Below, one piece after another: positions 35,457 through 42,148 of a stretch of DNA of 47,778 bases (its first letter is position 1; each line of letters starts with the position of its first letter). Location of the stretch: contig UROD01000001.1 of NCBI GenBank assembly GCA_900549365.1, positions 1-47,778 on the forward strand, in the 5' to 3' direction. The translations under genes and the position numbers were made by a program. Source of the DNA: an uncultured Rickettsiales bacterium (GTDB lineage: Bacteria > Pseudomonadota > Alphaproteobacteria > Rs-D84). The notes under the pieces are model-generated. The model had not been told where the DNA came from, searched no databases, and was given only the letters and a program-made list of their open reading frames with translations.

Positions 35457-35484
35457 TTGACACCGCGTCGCAAAGGTATATAAT
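35457..35484 (+). promoter_or_regulatory. Consensus sigma70-type promoter for tRNA-fMet
   Basis: TTGACA (35457-35462), a 16-nt spacer, then TATAAT (35479-35484). The tRNA begins 16 nt downstream. Confidence 0.7.
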
Positions 35485-35499
35485 CTAAATCACTTTCGA

Positions 35500-35576
<77 letters not shown>

Positions 35577-35583
35577 GTTAAAT

Positions 35584-35618
35584 AAAAAAATCACACCATT
35601 TCTGGTGTGTTTTTTTTA
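35584..35618 (+). terminator. Rho-independent terminator after tRNA-fMet
   Basis: CACACCA-TTTC-TGGTGTG followed by a 9-nt T-run. Confidence 0.8.
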
Positions 35619-35706
35619 TTTAATCTGTTGTGGATAATCGGTTTGTGACCCAGCTATAAAATGGCATCTACTATTATTTTCCTGAACAAAAACAAAGGAT
35701 TATAAT

Positions 35707-36345
35707 ATGGTTTATGCATAACTGCGCGTCAGCACCGACGCCCAAGATACCGCCAATCAACGCCTGGGGGTTGATACCAAGGCAATCAAACTGGGGCTGA
35801 TTATAGACAAATACATCATCGACGATGGTGTGTCCGGCACAACAGACCCAAAAATGCGCAAATTCGGCGCACTGATAAAGAACGTAAAATTTGGCGATAT
35901 AATCATAGTTTCTGAACTGTCGCGTTTTGGCCGCCGACTGTTTATGCTGTTTCGCGTGTTAGAAACATTACTCAACAAAGGGGTCAAAGTTTATTCAGTC
36001 AAAGACGGCTATTCGTTGGACAATACATTGCAATCCAAGGTTCTGGCATTTGCATTCGGTATGGCGGCGGAAATAGAACGAGAAATGATATCAAAGCGCA
36101 CCAAAGAGGCACTGGCCCGCCGCAAGGCCGATGGAAAATTCATTGGTCGCAAGTCCGGCGCAAAAAACGCGCGTCATAAATTAGACGGCAAAGAAAACCT
36201 GATAAAAGTAATGCTGGAATCCAATATGTCACTGCGCGACGTCGCCCGCCGCCTGAACGTCAGCCCCACCACCATCAGCACGTTTATCGCGAACAAGTGT
36301 CCAAAACTAGCCAACCCCAGTACTGGACAAAATTATAAACTATAA
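35707..36345 (+). pseudogene. Small serine recombinase (resolvase/invertase family) with a premature TAA at codon 5
   Basis: Reading from ATG 35707 (SD AAGGA) gives MVYA*LRVSTDAQDTANQ...SGTTDPKMRKF..., which continues in frame with the 171-aa track ORF. The catalytic RVST motif lies after the stop at 35719-35721. The C-terminal HTH is LRDVARRLNVSPTTIS. Confidence 0.75.
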
Positions 36346-36368
36346 TCAGTCCGAAAACAATTTATTTT

Positions 36369-36400
36369 TGTCCAAATTTAGGGTTGGTCAAATTTGGACA
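36369..36400. promoter_or_regulatory. Perfect 11-bp inverted repeat TGTCCAAATTT-N10-AAATTTGGACA (res/operator-like site)
   Basis: Read directly from the sequence. The TGTC...GACA termini recall resolvase binding sub-sites. It lies between the recombinase and MTase genes. Confidence 0.45.
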
Positions 36401-36436
36401 GTTTAATATGACGCCCCGCAAAAACGGGGTGTCAAT

Positions 36437-37546
36437 ATGGCAAACAAAAACCTATCTGCGGCAAAACGCGCAAAAAATGACGAGTTTTATACACAATATG
36501 CAGATATTCAAAAGGAAGTGAATGCATACCTAGATTACAATCCAGACGTATTTCGCGACAAGGTTATATTATTGCCATGCGATGACCCAGAATGGAGTAA
36601 TTTTACAAAATTTTTTGCCCAGAATTTTGAACGTTTTGGTATCAAAAAACTGATATCAACCAGTTATGCATGTGCAGCCAAAGGCAAAGATGCCTGTGCA
36701 AATTATTGTCCAACATTGTTTGAGTATAATTCTGAAAAATTCAACAAAGATAAAACAGAAACACATGGAAAAATATTCATACTGACCCGCGATACAAATC
36801 ATAACGGTCGCATTGATATAGACGATTTAGAATGGCAATACTTGGATGGCGATGGTGACTTTCGAAGTGCCGAAGTCAAAGCCCTGCGCGACGAAGCAAA
36901 TATAATTGTCACCAACCCGCCGTTTTCACAATTTCGCGATTTTCTGACCTGGATTATTGAAGCCGATAAGCGGTTTCTTATTATCGGGAACATGAACGCA
37001 ATAACTTACAAAGAAGCATTTCCTTTAATAAAGGACAATAATATGTGGCTTGGCGCAACAAATTTTAATACTGGAATGTATTTCAAAGTTCCAGATAATT
37101 TTGTATACGCATCAACATATAAATTTGATAGAGAACGGGATGGCATAAAAGTAAATAGAGTTCCCGGTGTTTGCTGGTTCACAAACATTGAACATGGCCG
37201 CCGTCATCAGCCCTTACAATTAATGACGATGGCAGACAACATAAAATTCAGTCGCCACAAAGAAATCCGAAATCAAGAATATCAAAAATACGATAATTAT
37301 GTTGCGATAGAAATTCCCTATTCAGACGCGATTCCATCAGATTATGACGGTGTTATGGGGGTTCCCATCAGTTTTTTGGATAAATACTGTCCCGAACAAT
37401 TTGAAATACTAGGTGCAACAGAAAGTGAAGGTCGCGGTTTTTCAAATGGATTATGGAATTTAGATTCAGGTATCTCACAAGCTATGGTTAATCATAAAAA
37501 AGTTTTTAAACGTATATTTATTCGTAAAAAGAAAGGTAACGCATAA
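36437..37546 (+). CDS. N6-adenine DNA methyltransferase, EcoRI-methylase-family-like
   Basis: The N-terminal [19 protein letters not shown] signature, DGDFRS, the catalytic [14 protein letters not shown] (NPPF), and WFTN. Confidence 0.75.
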
Positions 37547-38709
37547 TGAAAACAATATTACGTACTGATATAACTATTCGCGATATTTGCGATGGATTTG
37601 TATATAATGAATACGAGGGGCGCGGATTATTTGGCCTGTCTGGTAAATTGACAATTCAACCAGAATACCAGCGCAACTATATTTACGCCCAAGAAAACCG
37701 TGAATCTGGTGTTATTGATTCTGTTATCAAGGGTTACCCACTGGGTCTGATTTATTTTAACAAGGTTGCTGATGACAAGTTTGAGGTCTTGGACGGGCAA
37801 CAACGCATAACCAGTATTGGCAGGTACGTTACAAAAAAATTTCCAATCAAAGACCAAAATGGTATGGAGCAATACTTTGATGGTCTGAACCAACATATAC
37901 AAAATCAAATACTGGACACCCACTTGTTGATTTACGAGTGTGCTGGTACAGAAACCGAAATCAAGGAATGGTTCAAAATAATCAATATCAAGGGTATTCC
38001 ATTAAATGACCAAGAATTATTAAACGCTGTATATTCTGGACCATTTGTAACACTGGCCAAAGAAGAATTTAGCAACAGCCAAAATGCAAATATTCAAAAA
38101 TGGAGTGCATATGTTTCCGGGACGGTAAATCGTCAAGATTACCTGAAAACAGCACTGGAATGGGTCAGTAATAATAATATCAGTGATTATATGAGTGCGC
38201 ACCGTAACGACAACAATATCGCCGAATTAAAACAATATTTTACAACTGTTATTGATTGGGTTTCCAGCGTGTTTCAAAATATAGAACCTGAAATGCGTGG
38301 GCTGGAATGGGGACGTTTATATGAAAAATACCACCGTCAGGCATACGACCCAAAAATCATAGAATCCAAAGTCAAAGAGTTATACGCCGACCCGTATGTC
38401 AAAAATCGCAAAGGTATATTTGAATACGTACTTGGAGGGTGCGTGGATACCAAGTTATTGGACGTGCGTGTTTTTGACGAGGCCACAAAACGTGCCGTAT
38501 ATGCCCAACAAACACAACATGCAGAAGCATCGCACACATCAAATTGTCCATTATGTGCACTGGGGCATGATGCTAATAAAAGTAAAATATGGAAACCGTC
38601 TGATATGGACGCCGACCACGTAACTGCTTGGTCAAAGGGTGGCGCAACAGACATAAAAAATTGCCAAATGTTATGCAAAAGCCACAATCGCGCCAAGGGA
38701 AATAAATAG
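37546..38709 (+). CDS. DUF262 (ParB-like NTPase/nuclease) domain protein with a C-terminal HNH endonuclease motif
   Basis: [10 protein letters not shown] and [14 protein letters not shown] (DUF262 DGQQR), then CPLCALGHD...[31 protein letters not shown] (HNH). The start overlaps the MTase stop (TAATG). Confidence 0.75.
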
Positions 38710-38747
38710 TTTTTGACACAGCAAAATAACATATTACACTTATCATT

Positions 38748-39733: not shown

Positions 39734-42148
39734 TTATAAATCCCCTGCACCCTGCTTTTTCAAATACTCAGAAACAAAATTATTGCCATATTGCTTGTAC
39801 AATTCTTCGGCCAACAATACCGATGAACGTCCTGATTCAAACAGACGCAGTAAATTACCCAACCCACCTAGTTCCGTATTTAGAATCACAGATTCACCTG
39901 TCACCGGTCGCGACAACAATACCGCACGTTTCAGGTTTGGATACGCCTTGCCTTGAATAAATGCCATTTCCAGTGGATTCAGATTCCAATACTGATAATC
40001 CGATGCGTCCGCCGCTGGATTACGGAAGAATAACACCGTTTGCGCCTGCCCGCGAACAACGTCGCCAATCCCCAGTTTGTCCAGAACATTTGCGCGCTGG
40101 AACGCAACCATATATGCCTGACGGTTTTTGCGCCCTTCTTGCAGGCCAGTGATAAAGTTATCGCGAAACATTTTGTTTTCCAGCATAGGCGCAGTTTCGT
40201 CAATCATAATCAGTGACGGATTTCCGCCCGAAACCGTGATATTATTGATTCTGTGTAAAATATAAGAAATCACCGCTGGTGCCAGTGTTTCATCTTGTAA
40301 TATTTCAGTAAAATCAAACGTAGTCAGACGCGACTGCAAATCCAGTGTATCGGACGTTTCGTTAAATATGTCGCCATATTGCAACGGATCAATCCATTTT
40401 TTCAACGCTGGTCGCATATTGCCGTTGGATGCAAAGCAACTCTCCCATAAATTCTTTAATATTCTGTCGCGGTCGGGCAAATAGTCAAAATTCACCGACA
40501 CCGCGCGCGCGATTTCGTCCGCAGAATTTGCGTCTGATTGCCCCGTTATAATTGCAAACCACCGACGCAAGAACGCACGATTTGCCGCTGTGTCCGGCAT
40601 TTTCAGTGGATTTAAGTGCGTCAAAAATGAATTATCTGTGGCGTTTTTCTCTTTACCTTGCATCGTGATGTATTTGCCACCAACCGACAGGGTGAATATT
40701 TCTGCCCCCTTGTTACGGTCAAAGAAAAATGCCTTTAATTTCGGATGACGCAACGATTGCGCAATCAAGAAACTGAACAGCGTTGTTTTACCGCCACCAG
40801 TTGGCCCGATTGTCAATGTATGTGCAACCGCCGCCGGTTTATCAGATACATGGAATTGGAATTGATACGGTGTTCCTTGGGCAGTTGGAAATACAACCAG
40901 TGGCCCTGGGCCCCAATCGCAGTTCGCAACCCCACGTGGCTGGGTCGACATAGGAATACTGATTGCGGCCGTCCGCGACAGCAACTTGAAACTGCGCGGG
41001 AAAACATCAAATCCAGGGATTTGTGCAAACCACGACACGCGCGCCGCATATGTTTCACAAATCGGGGCAACACCAAATGACGCTGATATTTTCTTGAATT
41101 CATCAACATAATGATTCAGTTCATCAATCGAACGCCCAAATAAAATAAACAGTGGGTAATAATTTACCAGCGATTGATTCCCAGTTGCGTTTTCGTCCAT
41201 CGCACTCTGGGCATCTGAAATCTGTTCCAATGTCGATGTTTCGTTTTCATCAGCCGATGATTGACGCTGGCGCAATGTCATTTCAACGTCCGCCGTCCCC
41301 ATAATTTGAAATGCATTCATGCAAATCATTTCTGTCTGGATTGTTGAAATAGTATCAAAAAATTCTTCGTCCAGATAATCTGGTGATGTGCGGAATGACA
41401 TCATTGCCGCAAACGTCTGCGACCCGCCACTGACATAGCGTACGACACCATCGCGCATAAATTCAACATCGTCAACTGTTACCAAATCCGCAATACGATT
41501 ATCGCATACAATGGGCGTGGGTTTTGTAATCGGAGACAAAATACGTCCAAAGAATTGCGCCATATTATCAGTCGAATTATTACGCAATAATTTCGGATGA
41601 TACGCCGCCAATATGGATTCCAGATAATTACCGTATTGATTCAGTTTTTCGCGCGCACCCGCACCTGATACCTGTAATACAATATAATAATTATTCAAGA
41701 AAATGCGTAACCCTTGGGCCTGCCATTTATCATATATTTTTTGTAAAACTGGCTGGTCAAATTCATAGTCCGTATTTTCGTCCGTCGCATCACGCGTCAT
41801 AAAGAAACGCATCACAACATTCTGATCACGAATTTGATTAAACAGTTGTGTACGTAATTCCAAGAATTTTTCACGGGTGGCGGCATCTTGCATACTGGTC
41901 TGGACACCCGCAACACGATATACACGCAACAGCGACCCATCTGATAATTCCAATGTATCATCGTTATACACGGTACGGAATGGCAAATAACGCGAATAGC
42001 GTTTATAGCCAAACTGGGGCAATATACGCCGCGTCAGTGTTGGTAAATACATCATCAGCACGACAAAGATAAAAATCACCGCAATGACCATTATCATTGT
42101 TGTGACGGGAAAACCACTGCCTGCGAAATATTCAAAAAATCCATTCAT
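39734..42148 (-). CDS. virB4: Type IV secretion system ATPase VirB4 (CagE/TrbE family)
   Basis: 804 aa with an N-terminal TM segment, Walker A GPTGGGKTT and Walker B LIMIDETAPML. A virB3-like gene lies directly upstream. Confidence 0.85.
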   Translation of the reverse strand: MNGFFEYFAGSGFPVTTMIMVIAVIFIFVVLMMYLPTLTRRILPQFGYKRYSRYLPFRTVYNDDTLELSDGSLLRVYRVAGVQTSMQDAATREKFLELRTQLFNQIRDQNVVMRFFMTRDATDENTDYEFDQPVLQKIYDKWQAQGLRIFLNNYYIVLQVSGAGAREKLNQYGNYLESILAAYHPKLLRNNSTDNMAQFFGRILSPITKPTPIVCDNRIADLVTVDDVEFMRDGVVRYVSGGSQTFAAMMSFRTSPDYLDEEFFDTISTIQTEMICMNAFQIMGTADVEMTLRQRQSSADENETSTLEQISDAQSAMDENATGNQSLVNYYPLFILFGRSIDELNHYVDEFKKISASFGVAPICETYAARVSWFAQIPGFDVFPRSFKLLSRTAAISIPMSTQPRGVANCDWGPGPLVVFPTAQGTPYQFQFHVSDKPAAVAHTLTIGPTGGGKTTLFSFLIAQSLRHPKLKAFFFDRNKGAEIFTLSVGGKYITMQGKEKNATDNSFLTHLNPLKMPDTAANRAFLRRWFAIITGQSDANSADEIARAVSVNFDYLPDRDRILKNLWESCFASNGNMRPALKKWIDPLQYGDIFNETSDTLDLQSRLTTFDFTEILQDETLAPAVISYILHRINNITVSGGNPSLIMIDETAPMLENKMFRDNFITGLQEGRKNRQAYMVAFQRANVLDKLGIGDVVRGQAQTVLFFRNPAADASDYQYWNLNPLEMAFIQGKAYPNLKRAVLLSRPVTGESVILNTELGGLGNLLRLFESGRSSVLLAEELYKQYGNNFVSEYLKKQGAGDL

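Follow-up and report, generated by a model that had tools for sequence, protein, structure and literature searches.

How would a nuclease with a GmrS/ParB-type NTPase domain, known from modification-dependent enzymes, work when its gene is coupled to that of a DNA-modifying enzyme? The question is raised by two adjoining genes in a 47,778-nt stretch of DNA (the window) from contig UROD01000001.1 of an uncultured Rickettsiales bacterium. A preliminary description had seen in them a restriction or defence module in which a domain of GmrS type is teamed with a DNA-modifying enzyme, and this view held on closer analysis. Both ORFs, their one-base overlap and all of the motifs quoted for them were present as claimed:

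36437–37546, + strand: methylase ORF, 369 aa, an EcoRI-family (PF13651) N6-adenine DNA methyltransferase and the proposed specificity subunit
37546–38709, + strand: nuclease ORF, 387 aa, a DUF262 (GmrS/ParB-like NTPase) domain, a helical middle region and an HNH domain; the proposed generic cleavage subunit
37544–37548, + strand: TAATG stop/start overlap, read directly in the sequence, giving translational coupling

The methylase stop codon (TAA, 37544–37546) and the nuclease start codon (ATG, 37546–37548) have one base in common, and a Shine–Dalgarno-like AAAGG run lies 5′ of the nuclease start; the translational coupling proposed earlier was confirmed. Methylase motifs comprise KNDEFYTQ at aa 13–20 (NDEFYTQ, aa 14–20) and TNPPF at aa 159–163 (NPPF, nt 36914–36925); NDEFYTQ and TNPPF show no variation across the family alignment and line up with M.EcoRI. 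Those of the nuclease are a DUF262 segment at aa 38–47, LDGQQR at aa 82–87, NCPLC at aa 333–337 and an HNH motif within aa 355–385. Pfam supported the three domain calls, each above its curated cutoff. The methylase matched EcoRI_methylase (PF13651) over profile positions 1–345 of 345 (E=6e-125, 417.5 bits, cutoff 26.4), while the nuclease matched GmrSD_N/DUF262 (PF03235) at aa 36–163 (E=4e-19, 69.8 bits, cutoff 33.2) and HNH (PF01844) at aa 352–387 (E=2e-7, 31.6 bits, cutoff 21.4). Helicase or ResIII domains were not found in the pair by the Pfam scan.

Two domains of the nuclease carry its conserved residues, separated by a helical middle region of ~165 aa:

37651–38034, + strand: DUF262/GmrSD_N domain with the nucleotide-binding motifs QR (aa 42–43) and DGQQR (aa 83–87, nt 37792–37806)
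38545–38700, + strand: zinc-finger HNH nuclease domain with C334, C337, D357-H358 (H358 codon, nt 38617–38619), N372, C373, C377, H380 and N381

In a deep alignment of 57 nuclease sequences (33–63 % identity), the QR and DGQQR motifs were invariant and aligned to those of BrxU (7P9K), and the catalytic D357-H358, N372 and N381 together with C334 and C377 of the zinc site were invariant or at least 90 % conserved. The HNH catalytic His and Asn were thus conserved and not missing. The deep profile of the nuclease family matched solved HNH enzymes (4H9D, E=4e-6; also IscB/Cas9 HNH, McrA and T4 endonuclease VII) and the DUF262 domain of BrxU (7P9K, E=0.002). Single-sequence searches of the PDB returned no match for either protein. 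The AlphaFold2 model of the nuclease, built on a 23-sequence alignment, had a mean pLDDT of 44.7, too low for use; that of the methylase had a pLDDT of 65.9, was confident for aa 20–200 only, and gave nothing below E=0.09 in a Foldseek search against the PDB. The claim that HNH takes the place of DUF1524 was borne out in part: the C-terminus is PF01844 HNH, and no match to PF07510 (DUF1524, GmrD) was found in the nuclease by the Pfam scan. However, DUF1524, which normally serves as the effector of GmrSD, also belongs to the His-Me-finger/HNH superfamily (PMC4619093), so the HNH domain here represents a family switch within one superfamily and not a new kind of effector.

Neither the rarity nor the novelty that had been implied for this architecture was borne out. 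PADLOC models match both genes, MTase_II the methylase (E=1e-90) and a full-length REase_II model the nuclease end to end (E=2.5e-91, positions 5–372 of 372), and the cassette occurs in hundreds of species. Tools of the DefenseFinder/PADLOC type would therefore label the pair plain type II restriction–modification (R-M), and by the catalogue definition, an adjacent methylase and endonuclease matching type II models, it is one. The architecture is thus catalogued; as to its being a characterised system, a literature search for a paper characterizing the methylase/DUF262-HNH pair or a named member found none. Fusions of DUF262 and HNH tied to R-M were pointed out in 2013 (PMC3632139). Cluster names are absent for the family. 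HpyAXII was considered as a characterized member and rejected, as it belongs to the PabI glycosylase family. Further PADLOC matches, to Menshen NsnA (E=4e-28) and PD-T4-2_A (E=3e-15), covered the DUF262 region of the nuclease only.

Relatives of the nuclease were numerous (when clustered at 50 % identity, 5453 clusters reached E≤1e-3 and 445 reached E≤1e-30), and the linkage to a methylase was close to obligate. Among species-genome loci with enough upstream DNA, a methylase lay upstream on the same strand in approximately 75 of 76; on viral contigs it was linked in 72 of 75 loci (71 upstream, one downstream), with nuclease identity down to 40 %. The cassette was found in bacteria, archaea, plasmids and phages, including plasmids and one phage from four phyla, and 62 of 73 related junctions showed an overlap or a gap of at most 15 nt. 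A third conserved gene between methylase and nuclease was considered and rejected, the inserts being IS200 transposases, Bro-N genes and a RhuM fragment. Orphan nucleases were rare (L069), as were pairs of Bro-N and nuclease without methylase (L139, L145).

In a few lineages (three to four) the two proteins are joined in frame as methylase-DUF262-HNH fusions. P0404 (717 aa, standard genetic code) has NDEFYTS and NPPF intact, P0405 has NPPF intact, and P0308/P0403, from an organism in which TGA encodes Trp, has a degenerate FPSF. The initiator Met of the nuclease was kept in each fusion, after differing linkers. No methylase neighbour was present in the portion of contig examined for the fusion with the degenerate catalytic motif (L089). 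An origin of the P0308 fusion as a stop-codon read-through artefact was rejected, since its in-frame TGAs fall at conserved Trp positions and none at the junction. Such fusions could arise easily from overlapping genes.

Variation within the cassette was concentrated in two modules of the methylase:

37046–37171, + strand: VR1, a probable target-recognition element, methylase aa 204–245
37439–37510, + strand: VR2, a second swappable element, methylase aa 335–358

Median pairwise identity was 0.18 for VR1 and 0.09 for VR2, compared with 0.66 for the N-terminal half of the methylase and 0.72 for the nuclease (72 % across phyla, at a nearly fixed length of 386–392 aa). Because the loci were collected through similarity of their nucleases, the nuclease looks more conserved than it is; comparisons limited to nuclease pairs at least 90 % identical are free of this bias. 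VR1 fell into at least 16 distinct types, every one of them preserved between distant hosts, and VR2 into at least 38 types, which reassorted independently of VR1 to give 52 VR1×VR2 combinations among 70 loci. The window's own host lineage held six VR1 and seven VR2 types in nine combinations, reassortants included, and its methylases of differing modules adjoined nucleases that were 94–99 % identical. Nuclease sequence did not follow module type. Identity in 20-aa windows of the nuclease did not correlate with VR1 or VR2 identity (rho≤0.15), no nuclease column exceeded a normalized mutual information of 0.31 with VR1 type (26 methylase columns reached at least 0.6), and nuclease identity was 0.733 within and 0.725 between VR1 types.

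The methylase is ~40 % identical to authentic M.EcoRI, whose modules also occur in the cassette family: its VR1 type is found again in L002 and its VR2 type in L008, in both cases alongside a different second module, while a methylase partnering an EcoRI-family REase in Klebsiella has both VR1 and VR2 of EcoRI type. The M.EcoRI segment equivalent to VR1 holds Y204, C223 and W225, which we take to be DNA-proximal residues (Y204 and C223 from cross-linking), with H235 just after it. The H235N change alters the specificity of M.EcoRI (PMC2396439). By analogy, and from the positions of these M.EcoRI residues, VR1 and VR2 would plausibly set the specificity of the methylase.

Reassortment of methylase modules beside an invariant nuclease, together with the natural fusions of methylase and nuclease, suggests that the nuclease is guided, probably with the methylase as the source of its target specificity and without reading DNA itself. 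The cassette may accordingly be a mobile two-subunit R-M system with a logic like that of type III or type IIG and not that of classical type IIP, a reading in which we place roughly even confidence. The methylase would mark host DNA with m6A at a sequence defined by the exchangeable VR1 and VR2, and would at the same time serve the DUF262-HNH protein as a target-recognition subunit; that protein would have no sequence specificity of its own. The ParB/GmrS-like domain would bind and hydrolyse nucleotide, serving as a switch, and the zinc-finger HNH domain would cut or nick DNA once the complex engages unmethylated sites, with translational coupling supplying both subunits together. We infer that methylase and nuclease form a complex, that the nuclease depends on NTP and that unmethylated DNA is its substrate. 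M.EcoRI works by itself as a monomer, so forming a complex is no general trait of EcoRI-family methylases. The preliminary description had offered two alternatives, a nuclease that cuts unmodified DNA while the methylase protects self DNA, or a pair with a different logic; reassortment and fusions argue against a classical R subunit with its own matching specificity, and the different logic is favoured.

Several other explanations must be weighed against this guided nuclease. A classical type IIP or IIS system, in which an autonomous sequence-specific DUF262-HNH enzyme recognizes the same fixed site as the methylase and the VRs are surface loops or isospecific alternatives, would suit the PADLOC assignments, with their full-length model for the nuclease, and the behaviour of a mobile pair as a selfish cassette of type II. 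A single shared recognition site would likewise be in keeping with how very strongly the nuclease is conserved, and the ~165-aa middle region of the nuclease could read DNA. A fixed specificity, however, predicts one conserved module, and the many VR1 and VR2 types reassort freely, with purifying selection on each type within that type. M.EcoRI modules turn up separately in different cassettes, no nuclease residue tracks module type, and fusion proteins would be needless. Motifs within the EcoRI family also differ, GAATTC and, in the EcoRI-like M.MpnI, CTAT (PMC3536716). By the comparative proxy of modules that reassort beside an unchanged nuclease, the co-variation of R and M specificities that defines classical type IIP was absent, and we regard this explanation as quite unlikely.

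The indifference of the nuclease to module type would be equally well suited by mark sensing as in SspE, in which DUF262 would respond to m6A or to its density, whatever the surrounding sequence, and would control the HNH domain accordingly; a methylase of any specificity would then do, and the two proteins need not touch. Conserved NTP-binding motifs are in keeping with such a mechanism. To our knowledge, however, no DUF262 protein reads m6A, and the sensing of absent marks without a target sequence would be mechanistically hard. Physical cooperation better explains the recurrent fusions, in one of which the methylase domain is dead, as well as the strict order of the genes and their coupling. 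This leaves mark sensing an unlikely account, even though DUF262 in GmrSD, BrxU and SspE responds to DNA modification and SspE acts jointly with a host modification system (PMC12065111, PMC12707154). The genes might instead be linked for another reason: the nuclease might be a toxin, or an enzyme like those of type IV that is aimed at hypermodified phage DNA, and the methylase an independent epigenetic or anti-restriction gene or the antidote of an addiction module. Type IV enzymes are the best-known carriers of DUF262 (PMC4619093, PMC12707154), nucleases without methylase do occur, if rarely (the three loci above), and orphan EcoRI-family methylases are represented by M.MpnI (PMC3536716) and the phage double methylase P0432. 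Against this stand the existence of fusions and the fact that in bacteria and archaea, on plasmids and in phages alike, the two genes co-occur almost without exception, in a fixed order and overlapping; an m6A-dependent nuclease would moreover be lethal beside an m6A methylase. We consider linkage for another reason highly improbable.

The guided-nuclease reading can be set beside known systems. GmrSD, BrxU and SspE share with it an N-terminal NTPase domain of the ParB/Srx-like kind (DUF262, motifs QR and DGQQR), a C-terminal His-Me-finger nuclease and a role in defence, and SspE likewise runs with a host DNA-modification system. In the present family the effector is a PF01844 zinc-finger HNH and not DUF1524, the protein is shorter (~387 versus ~590 aa), and its gene lies nearly always directly 3′ of, and coupled to, that of an m6A methylase; this coupling means that the nuclease cannot depend on that modification. 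Of the features of GmrSD type IV enzymes, DUF262 with DGQQR is thus present, DUF1524 is absent, and the nuclease does not stand alone without a methylase. Menshen NsnA and PD-T4-2 A are alike over the DUF262 region only; they have other C-terminal parts and other partner genes, and a methylase is absent from both systems. EcoRI R-M has a methylase of the same Pfam family, and its VR1 and VR2 types occur in the cassette family; R.EcoRI, in contrast, is a PD-(D/E)XK enzyme with its own readout of GAATTC, the gene order is R then M, and a single, unvarying pair of modules was seen in the EcoRI-type methylases examined.

A close likeness in logic is that to type III systems, whose Mod subunit has a hypervariable, swappable recognition region and whose conserved nuclease subunit contains an NTPase switch and an endonuclease. 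The cassette resembles them in methylase-then-nuclease order, in coupling, in the placement of NTPase switch and endonuclease in the nuclease subunit, and in a hypervariable, swappable recognition region of the methylase beside a conserved nuclease. In type III systems, Res joins an SF2 helicase-like ATPase to a PD-(D/E)XK nuclease and Mod belongs to the beta class of methylases, whereas here the NTPase is ParB/GmrS-like, the nuclease HNH and the methylase of the EcoRI family, so that the domains defining type III are absent, and methylase-dependent cleavage is a proposal. Single-chain R-M enzymes of type IIG/IIC, such as the MmeI family, unite methylation, target recognition and cleavage in one chain, as the fused P0404 and P0405 would, and the established TRD1/TRD2 shuffling of type I HsdS resembles the independent reassortment of two recognition modules here. 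Domain families differ throughout from both, the common form here is two genes, and a search for a local shufflon or silent methylase cassettes, as in HsdS shuffling, found no extra copies within the window.

More tentatively, and at somewhat less than even confidence, the cassette family may form a distinct and very widespread R-M class, in which a programmable methylase, its two recognition modules exchangeable independently of each other, sets the specificity for a generic ParB/GmrS-like NTPase-HNH protein and the NTPase might act as a nucleotide-gated clamp or switch, like the Res ATPase of type III; the type II label would then hide a new type with combinatorially evolvable specificity. 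If the methylase does guide a generic nuclease, proteins now annotated as 'DUF262 domain-containing protein' or type II would constitute a mechanistically new R-M type in hundreds of bacterial and archaeal species, plasmids and phages, and a GmrS/ParB-type NTPase would be at work in a modification-blocked system. The two swappable modules would offer a natural, compact (~2.3 kb) platform to reprogram methylation and cleavage specificity, and would explain how specificity has diversified fast in one gut lineage. In annotation, specificity should not be carried over from one cassette to another on the strength of nuclease similarity.

The cassette lies at the right end of a mobile islet, described earlier as low in GC, next to tRNA-fMet and beside a dead recombinase, all of which was confirmed:

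35530–38710, no strand: mobile islet of ~3.2 kb holding the 3′ part of tRNA-fMet, a terminator, a serine recombinase, palindromic sites, the methylase and the nuclease
35500–35576, + strand: tRNA-Met (CAT) of initiator type (ARAGORN; Rfam tRNA, 62 bits) with a C1×A72 mismatch
35707–36345, + strand: small serine recombinase (resolvase/invertase type, C-terminal HTH), inactivated by a nonsense codon 5 (TAA, 35719–35721)
36295–36403, no strand: a pair of palindromic sites of ~32 bp each, TGTCCAAA...TTTGGACA, inverted relative to each other, with centres near 36315 and 36383
36406–36438, + strand: leader hairpin, GACGCCCCG-loop-CGGGGTGTC, which in the predicted fold sequesters the methylase start codon

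The islet is an exact block common to the sister loci L005–L008, among which the outer flanks differ; at the left edge, L007 and L008 carry no more of the tRNA than its 3′-terminal 47 nt, before which the sequence is unrelated, and the right edge lies one base past the nuclease stop. GC content was 38.1 % for the two genes, 39.8 % for the islet and 43.2 % for the whole window, and 3 % of same-size windows were as low as the genes. The tRNA, with its C1×A72 initiator signature, is preceded by a perfect TTGACA-16-TATAAT promoter (35457–35484) and followed by a terminator (35592–35609), and an Rfam scan of the islet returned the tRNA only.

The recombinase matched Resolvase (PF00239, E=5e-20) and HTH_38, and resembled Mpi-family invertases below the curated cutoff. 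Its start reads MVYA*LRVSTDAQ in the window, with one in-frame stop, and MVYAYLRVSTDAQ in L005–L008, the four sister genomes in which the gene is intact. The palindromic sites, which form an inverted repeat (I2) with 41-nt arms, 73 % complementary and 27 nt apart, are conserved in L005 and L006 and are candidate binding or crossover sites of the recombinase. The RNA fold of 36346–36460 had a predicted energy of −32.7 kcal/mol (z=−3.3 versus shuffles), and the leader hairpin within it may have a regulatory role.

The tRNA gene and the two genes of the cassette are located in the window as follows.

35500–35576: initiator-type tRNA by its C1×A72 mismatch; it has its own perfect promoter and a terminator
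36437–37546, same strand as the nuclease gene: EcoRI-family N6-adenine methylase, 369 aa
37546–38709, same strand as the methylase gene: DUF262–HNH nuclease, 387 aa

The two ORFs have one base in common (TAA at 37544–37546, ATG at 37546–37548), with an AAAGG run upstream. The TAATG-type overlap reported in the preliminary description is therefore borne out, and all of the motifs quoted there are present in the two proteins. Its domain calls have HMM support, with the methylase matching Pfam EcoRI_methylase (PF13651, E=6e-125) over the whole profile and the nuclease matching GmrSD_N/DUF262 (PF03235, E=4e-19) at aa 36–163 and HNH (PF01844, E=2e-7) at aa 352–387. The only positions that are invariant or at least 90 % conserved in an alignment of 57 nuclease sequences (33–63 % identity) are Q42-R43, D83-G84-Q85-Q86-R87 and Q156-E157-N160, together with C334, D357-H358, N372, C377 and N381 in the C-terminal part; the catalytic His and Asn of the HNH motif are both present. 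A profile built from this alignment matched the solved structure of Gme HNH (4H9D, E=4e-6), other zinc-finger HNH enzymes (IscB/Cas9 HNH, McrA and T4 endonuclease VII) and the DUF262 domain of BrxU (7P9K, E=0.002). The agreement of ORFs, motifs, HMM matches, alignment and profile matches confirms the original observation. The effector is indeed an HNH domain, but its description as standing in place of DUF1524 needs correction: the DUF1524 domain that usually serves GmrSD as effector also belongs to the His-Me fingers (PMC4619093), so the switch is a change of family inside one superfamily.

The cassette had been presented as a rare, non-canonical candidate, a view that does not hold because the architecture is both catalogued and extremely common. 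The PADLOC model REase_II (372 positions) matches the nuclease end to end (E=2.5e-91) and MTase_II matches the methylase (E=1e-90), so automated defence finders would report an ordinary type II restriction–modification (R-M) system; in RefSeq the nuclease is named only 'DUF262 domain-containing protein'. Close homologues number over 8000 for each protein. When representatives clustered at 50 % identity were searched exhaustively, the nuclease had 5453 clusters with E≤1e-3 and 445 with E≤1e-30; most are 365–420 aa long and match from end to end. The nuclease was present in 174 species-representative genomes, from which 80 loci were kept, with hosts among Proteobacteria, Bacteroidota, Clostridia, Chloroflexi, Spirochaetes, CPR phyla and four archaeal lineages. 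Another 332 viral or proviral contigs carried it, as did plasmids of Moraxella, Enterococcus faecium, actinobacteria and lactobacilli and a Flavobacterium phage. Where enough upstream DNA was available, an EcoRI-family methylase lay upstream on the same strand at about 75 of 76 genome loci, and a same-strand methylase was found at 72 of 75 viral loci (71 upstream, one downstream), down to 40 % nuclease identity. The genes overlapped or were at most 15 nt apart at 62 of 73 junctions. Fusion of COG1479/DUF262 domains to HNH nucleases and linkage to R-M systems have been described as frequent (Makarova et al. 2013, PMC3632139); a literature search found no paper characterising the pairing of an EcoRI-family methylase with a DUF262–HNH protein.

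Rare exceptions were an orphan nuclease beside Fic and AAA_13 genes (L069) and two Bro-N-plus-nuclease pairs without a methylase (L139 and L145). A Bro-N gene precedes the nuclease, in the position between the two genes, at L142 (2127–2978), L139 (2127–2978) and L036 (1189–2013), the hosts being one prophage clade and one Helicobacteraceae MAG; its product might replace the methylase as a DNA-binding partner, or the gene might be an insert that counters restriction. The window methylase was also matched by 21 Lactococcus plasmid records (e.g. NC_008505.1, 28371–28562). Each of the 13 matches listed was only a remnant of about 64 aa (aa 26–89, ~66 % identity) with no annotated gene, possibly what is left of decayed cassettes.

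Among sister genomes with nucleases 96–99 % identical, the methylases were near-identical except for two segments, the proposed target-recognition modules.

Methylase aa 204–245: VR1, replaced wholesale between sisters
Methylase aa 335–358: VR2, replaced wholesale between sisters

Median pairwise identity across 70 loci was 0.18 for VR1, 0.09 for VR2, 0.66 for the N-terminal half of the methylase and 0.72 for the nuclease, the last looking inflated because similarity to the nuclease was the criterion for collecting the loci, a bias that does not touch comparisons made at fixed nuclease identity. Locus pairs with nucleases at least 90 % identical (n=41) mostly had 15–30 % identity in VR1 and 5–25 % in VR2. 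At least 16 discrete types of VR1 were distinguished, and each is shared by distant hosts in strongly conserved form; VR2 had at least 38 types, and the 70 loci showed 52 combinations of the two. The methylase lineage of the window (N-terminal 200 aa at least 88 % identical) alone held six VR1 and seven VR2 types in nine combinations, with clear reassortants, and agreement in the length of the longest contigs suggests that its alleles share large contigs with near-identical nucleases.

The nuclease did not follow these replacements. No 20-aa nuclease window correlated with VR1 or VR2 identity (Spearman ≤0.15), and normalised mutual information with VR1 type stayed at or below 0.31 in every nuclease column when the 51 loci belonging to the four largest VR1 types were compared. 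By the same measure 26 methylase columns reached at least 0.6, all but one of them in VR1. Nuclease identity was 0.733 within VR1 types versus 0.725 between them. A classical type IIP endonuclease must match the specificity of its methylase and no such tracking was seen, which speaks for a nuclease indifferent to the recognition modules.

The authentic M.EcoRI sequence came from an E. coli plasmid on which R.EcoRI precedes M.EcoRI. Its VR1 is of the same type as that of the E. faecium cassette (L002) and its VR2 of the same type as that of a sister locus (L008), the EcoRI-type module being joined to a different second module in each; the methylase partnering a Klebsiella EcoRI-family endonuclease has both EcoRI types. 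In mature-protein numbering W183, Y204, C223, W225 and H235 fit the sequence, and three of them (Y204, C223 and W225) fall within the segment equivalent to VR1. Y204 and C223 are probable sites of DNA cross-linking. The H235N substitution changes sequence discrimination by M.EcoRI (PMC2396439), and the target methylated by the EcoRI-like M.MpnI is CTAT, an asymmetric motif (PMC3536716), so specificity varies in EcoRI-like methylases.

Gene fusions also occur. P0404 (717 aa, standard genetic code; L090, 8001–10154, on a 61.7-kb contig with phage-like gene content) joins in frame an EcoRI-family methylase with NDEFYTS and VVTNPPF intact, a short linker and a complete DUF262–HNH protein. P0405 is a similar fusion with NPPF intact in a mycoplasma-like context. 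P0308 and P0403 are 688-aa fusions on two contigs of an organism reading TGA as Trp; every in-frame TGA coincides with a conserved Trp, and the junction itself has none. In both, the methylase motif is the degenerate TFPSF, and no methylase gene neighbours the fusion in the contig portion examined; here the methylase fold looks to have been reused purely as a DNA-binding module. Every fusion retains the nuclease's own initiator Met after a differing linker, which suggests independent fusion events. The neighbours of P0404 include genes for NAD-dependent DNA ligase, PRTase_2/TRSP, C-C_Bond_Lyase, ATPgrasp_Ter, PELOTA_1 and StiP, a set presumably tied to Ter-linked nucleotide-modification clusters, and the region is possibly a large phage or mobile element.

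The preliminary description left open whether the methylase protects against a classical nuclease or the pair works by different logic, and the comparative data support the latter, a claim that is specific, testable and apparently new to the literature. The best-supported model, with roughly an even chance of being correct, has two subunits that work by type III/IIG-like logic. Through VR1 and VR2 the methylase would fix the target of both methylation and restriction, and the DUF262–HNH protein would be a generic cleavage subunit, probably nucleotide-gated; we infer that the two form a complex and depend on NTP, and also what their substrate is. A nuclease agnostic to the modules could instead be SspE-like and sense m6A marks whatever the sequence context, which we consider unlikely. 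A classical autonomous type II endonuclease, the type reported by automated finders, would call for isospecific methylase variants across the many module types and is a shade less probable again. That the genes are linked for unrelated reasons is very improbable given how constantly they adjoin, and the fusions support physical cooperation of methylase and nuclease.

An orphan tandem double EcoRI-family methylase (P0432, 632 aa) with two different VR sets and no nuclease is likely to be a phage counter-defence against hosts with this cassette family.

L092, 5001–6899: P0432, phage-like contig
L093, 1138–3036: P0432, phage-like contig

The lower-GC islet described at the tRNA was also recovered. 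GC content is 43.2 % in the window as a whole but 38.1 % in the two genes, a level as low as that of only 3 % of segments of their size. In four sister genomes (uncultured gut Alphaproteobacteria labelled 'Rickettsiales') the block 35530–38710 is exactly common while the outer flanks differ, and in two of the four the left edge holds only the 3′ 47 nt of the tRNA. The unit is therefore a tRNA-associated islet of about 3.2 kb comprising the tRNA 3′ segment, terminator, serine recombinase, two palindromic sites, methylase and nuclease. The recombinase, previously called dead, does carry an in-frame TAA at codon 5 (35719–35721), but this is its sole lesion: the codon is Tyr in the four sisters, where the gene is intact, and the remainder is 95–98 % identical to the intact copies. 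Its inactivation is thus either very recent or a sequencing error.

Two inverted palindromes of about 32 bp, each with a central AA (TGTCCAAA..N..TTTGGACA; 36295–36403), span the recombinase 3′ end and the methylase leader and are kept in the sister loci L005 and L006; they are candidate res/hix-like sites at which the recombinase of the islet may bind or make its crossover. A GC-rich hairpin immediately 5′ of the methylase (36406–36438; leader fold z=−3.3) sequesters the AUG, and neither an obvious Shine–Dalgarno sequence nor a plus-strand promoter was found between recombinase and methylase. The methylase may be controlled at translation, or it may be transcribed together with the recombinase. 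L006 DNA is about 80 % identical to the window over flanking host genes and most of the methylase and 96 % identical in the nuclease gene, with the breakpoint inside VR2 (compared at 37427–37515), which indicates that the nuclease segment has recently recombined or been transferred between species. A short distance downstream of the islet, an 804-aa ORF on the minus strand (39734–42148) contains a Walker-A-like GPTGGGKT and, judged by eye from this motif, looks like a candidate VirB4/TrbE-type conjugation ATPase, so the islet may adjoin a type IV secretion or conjugative region.
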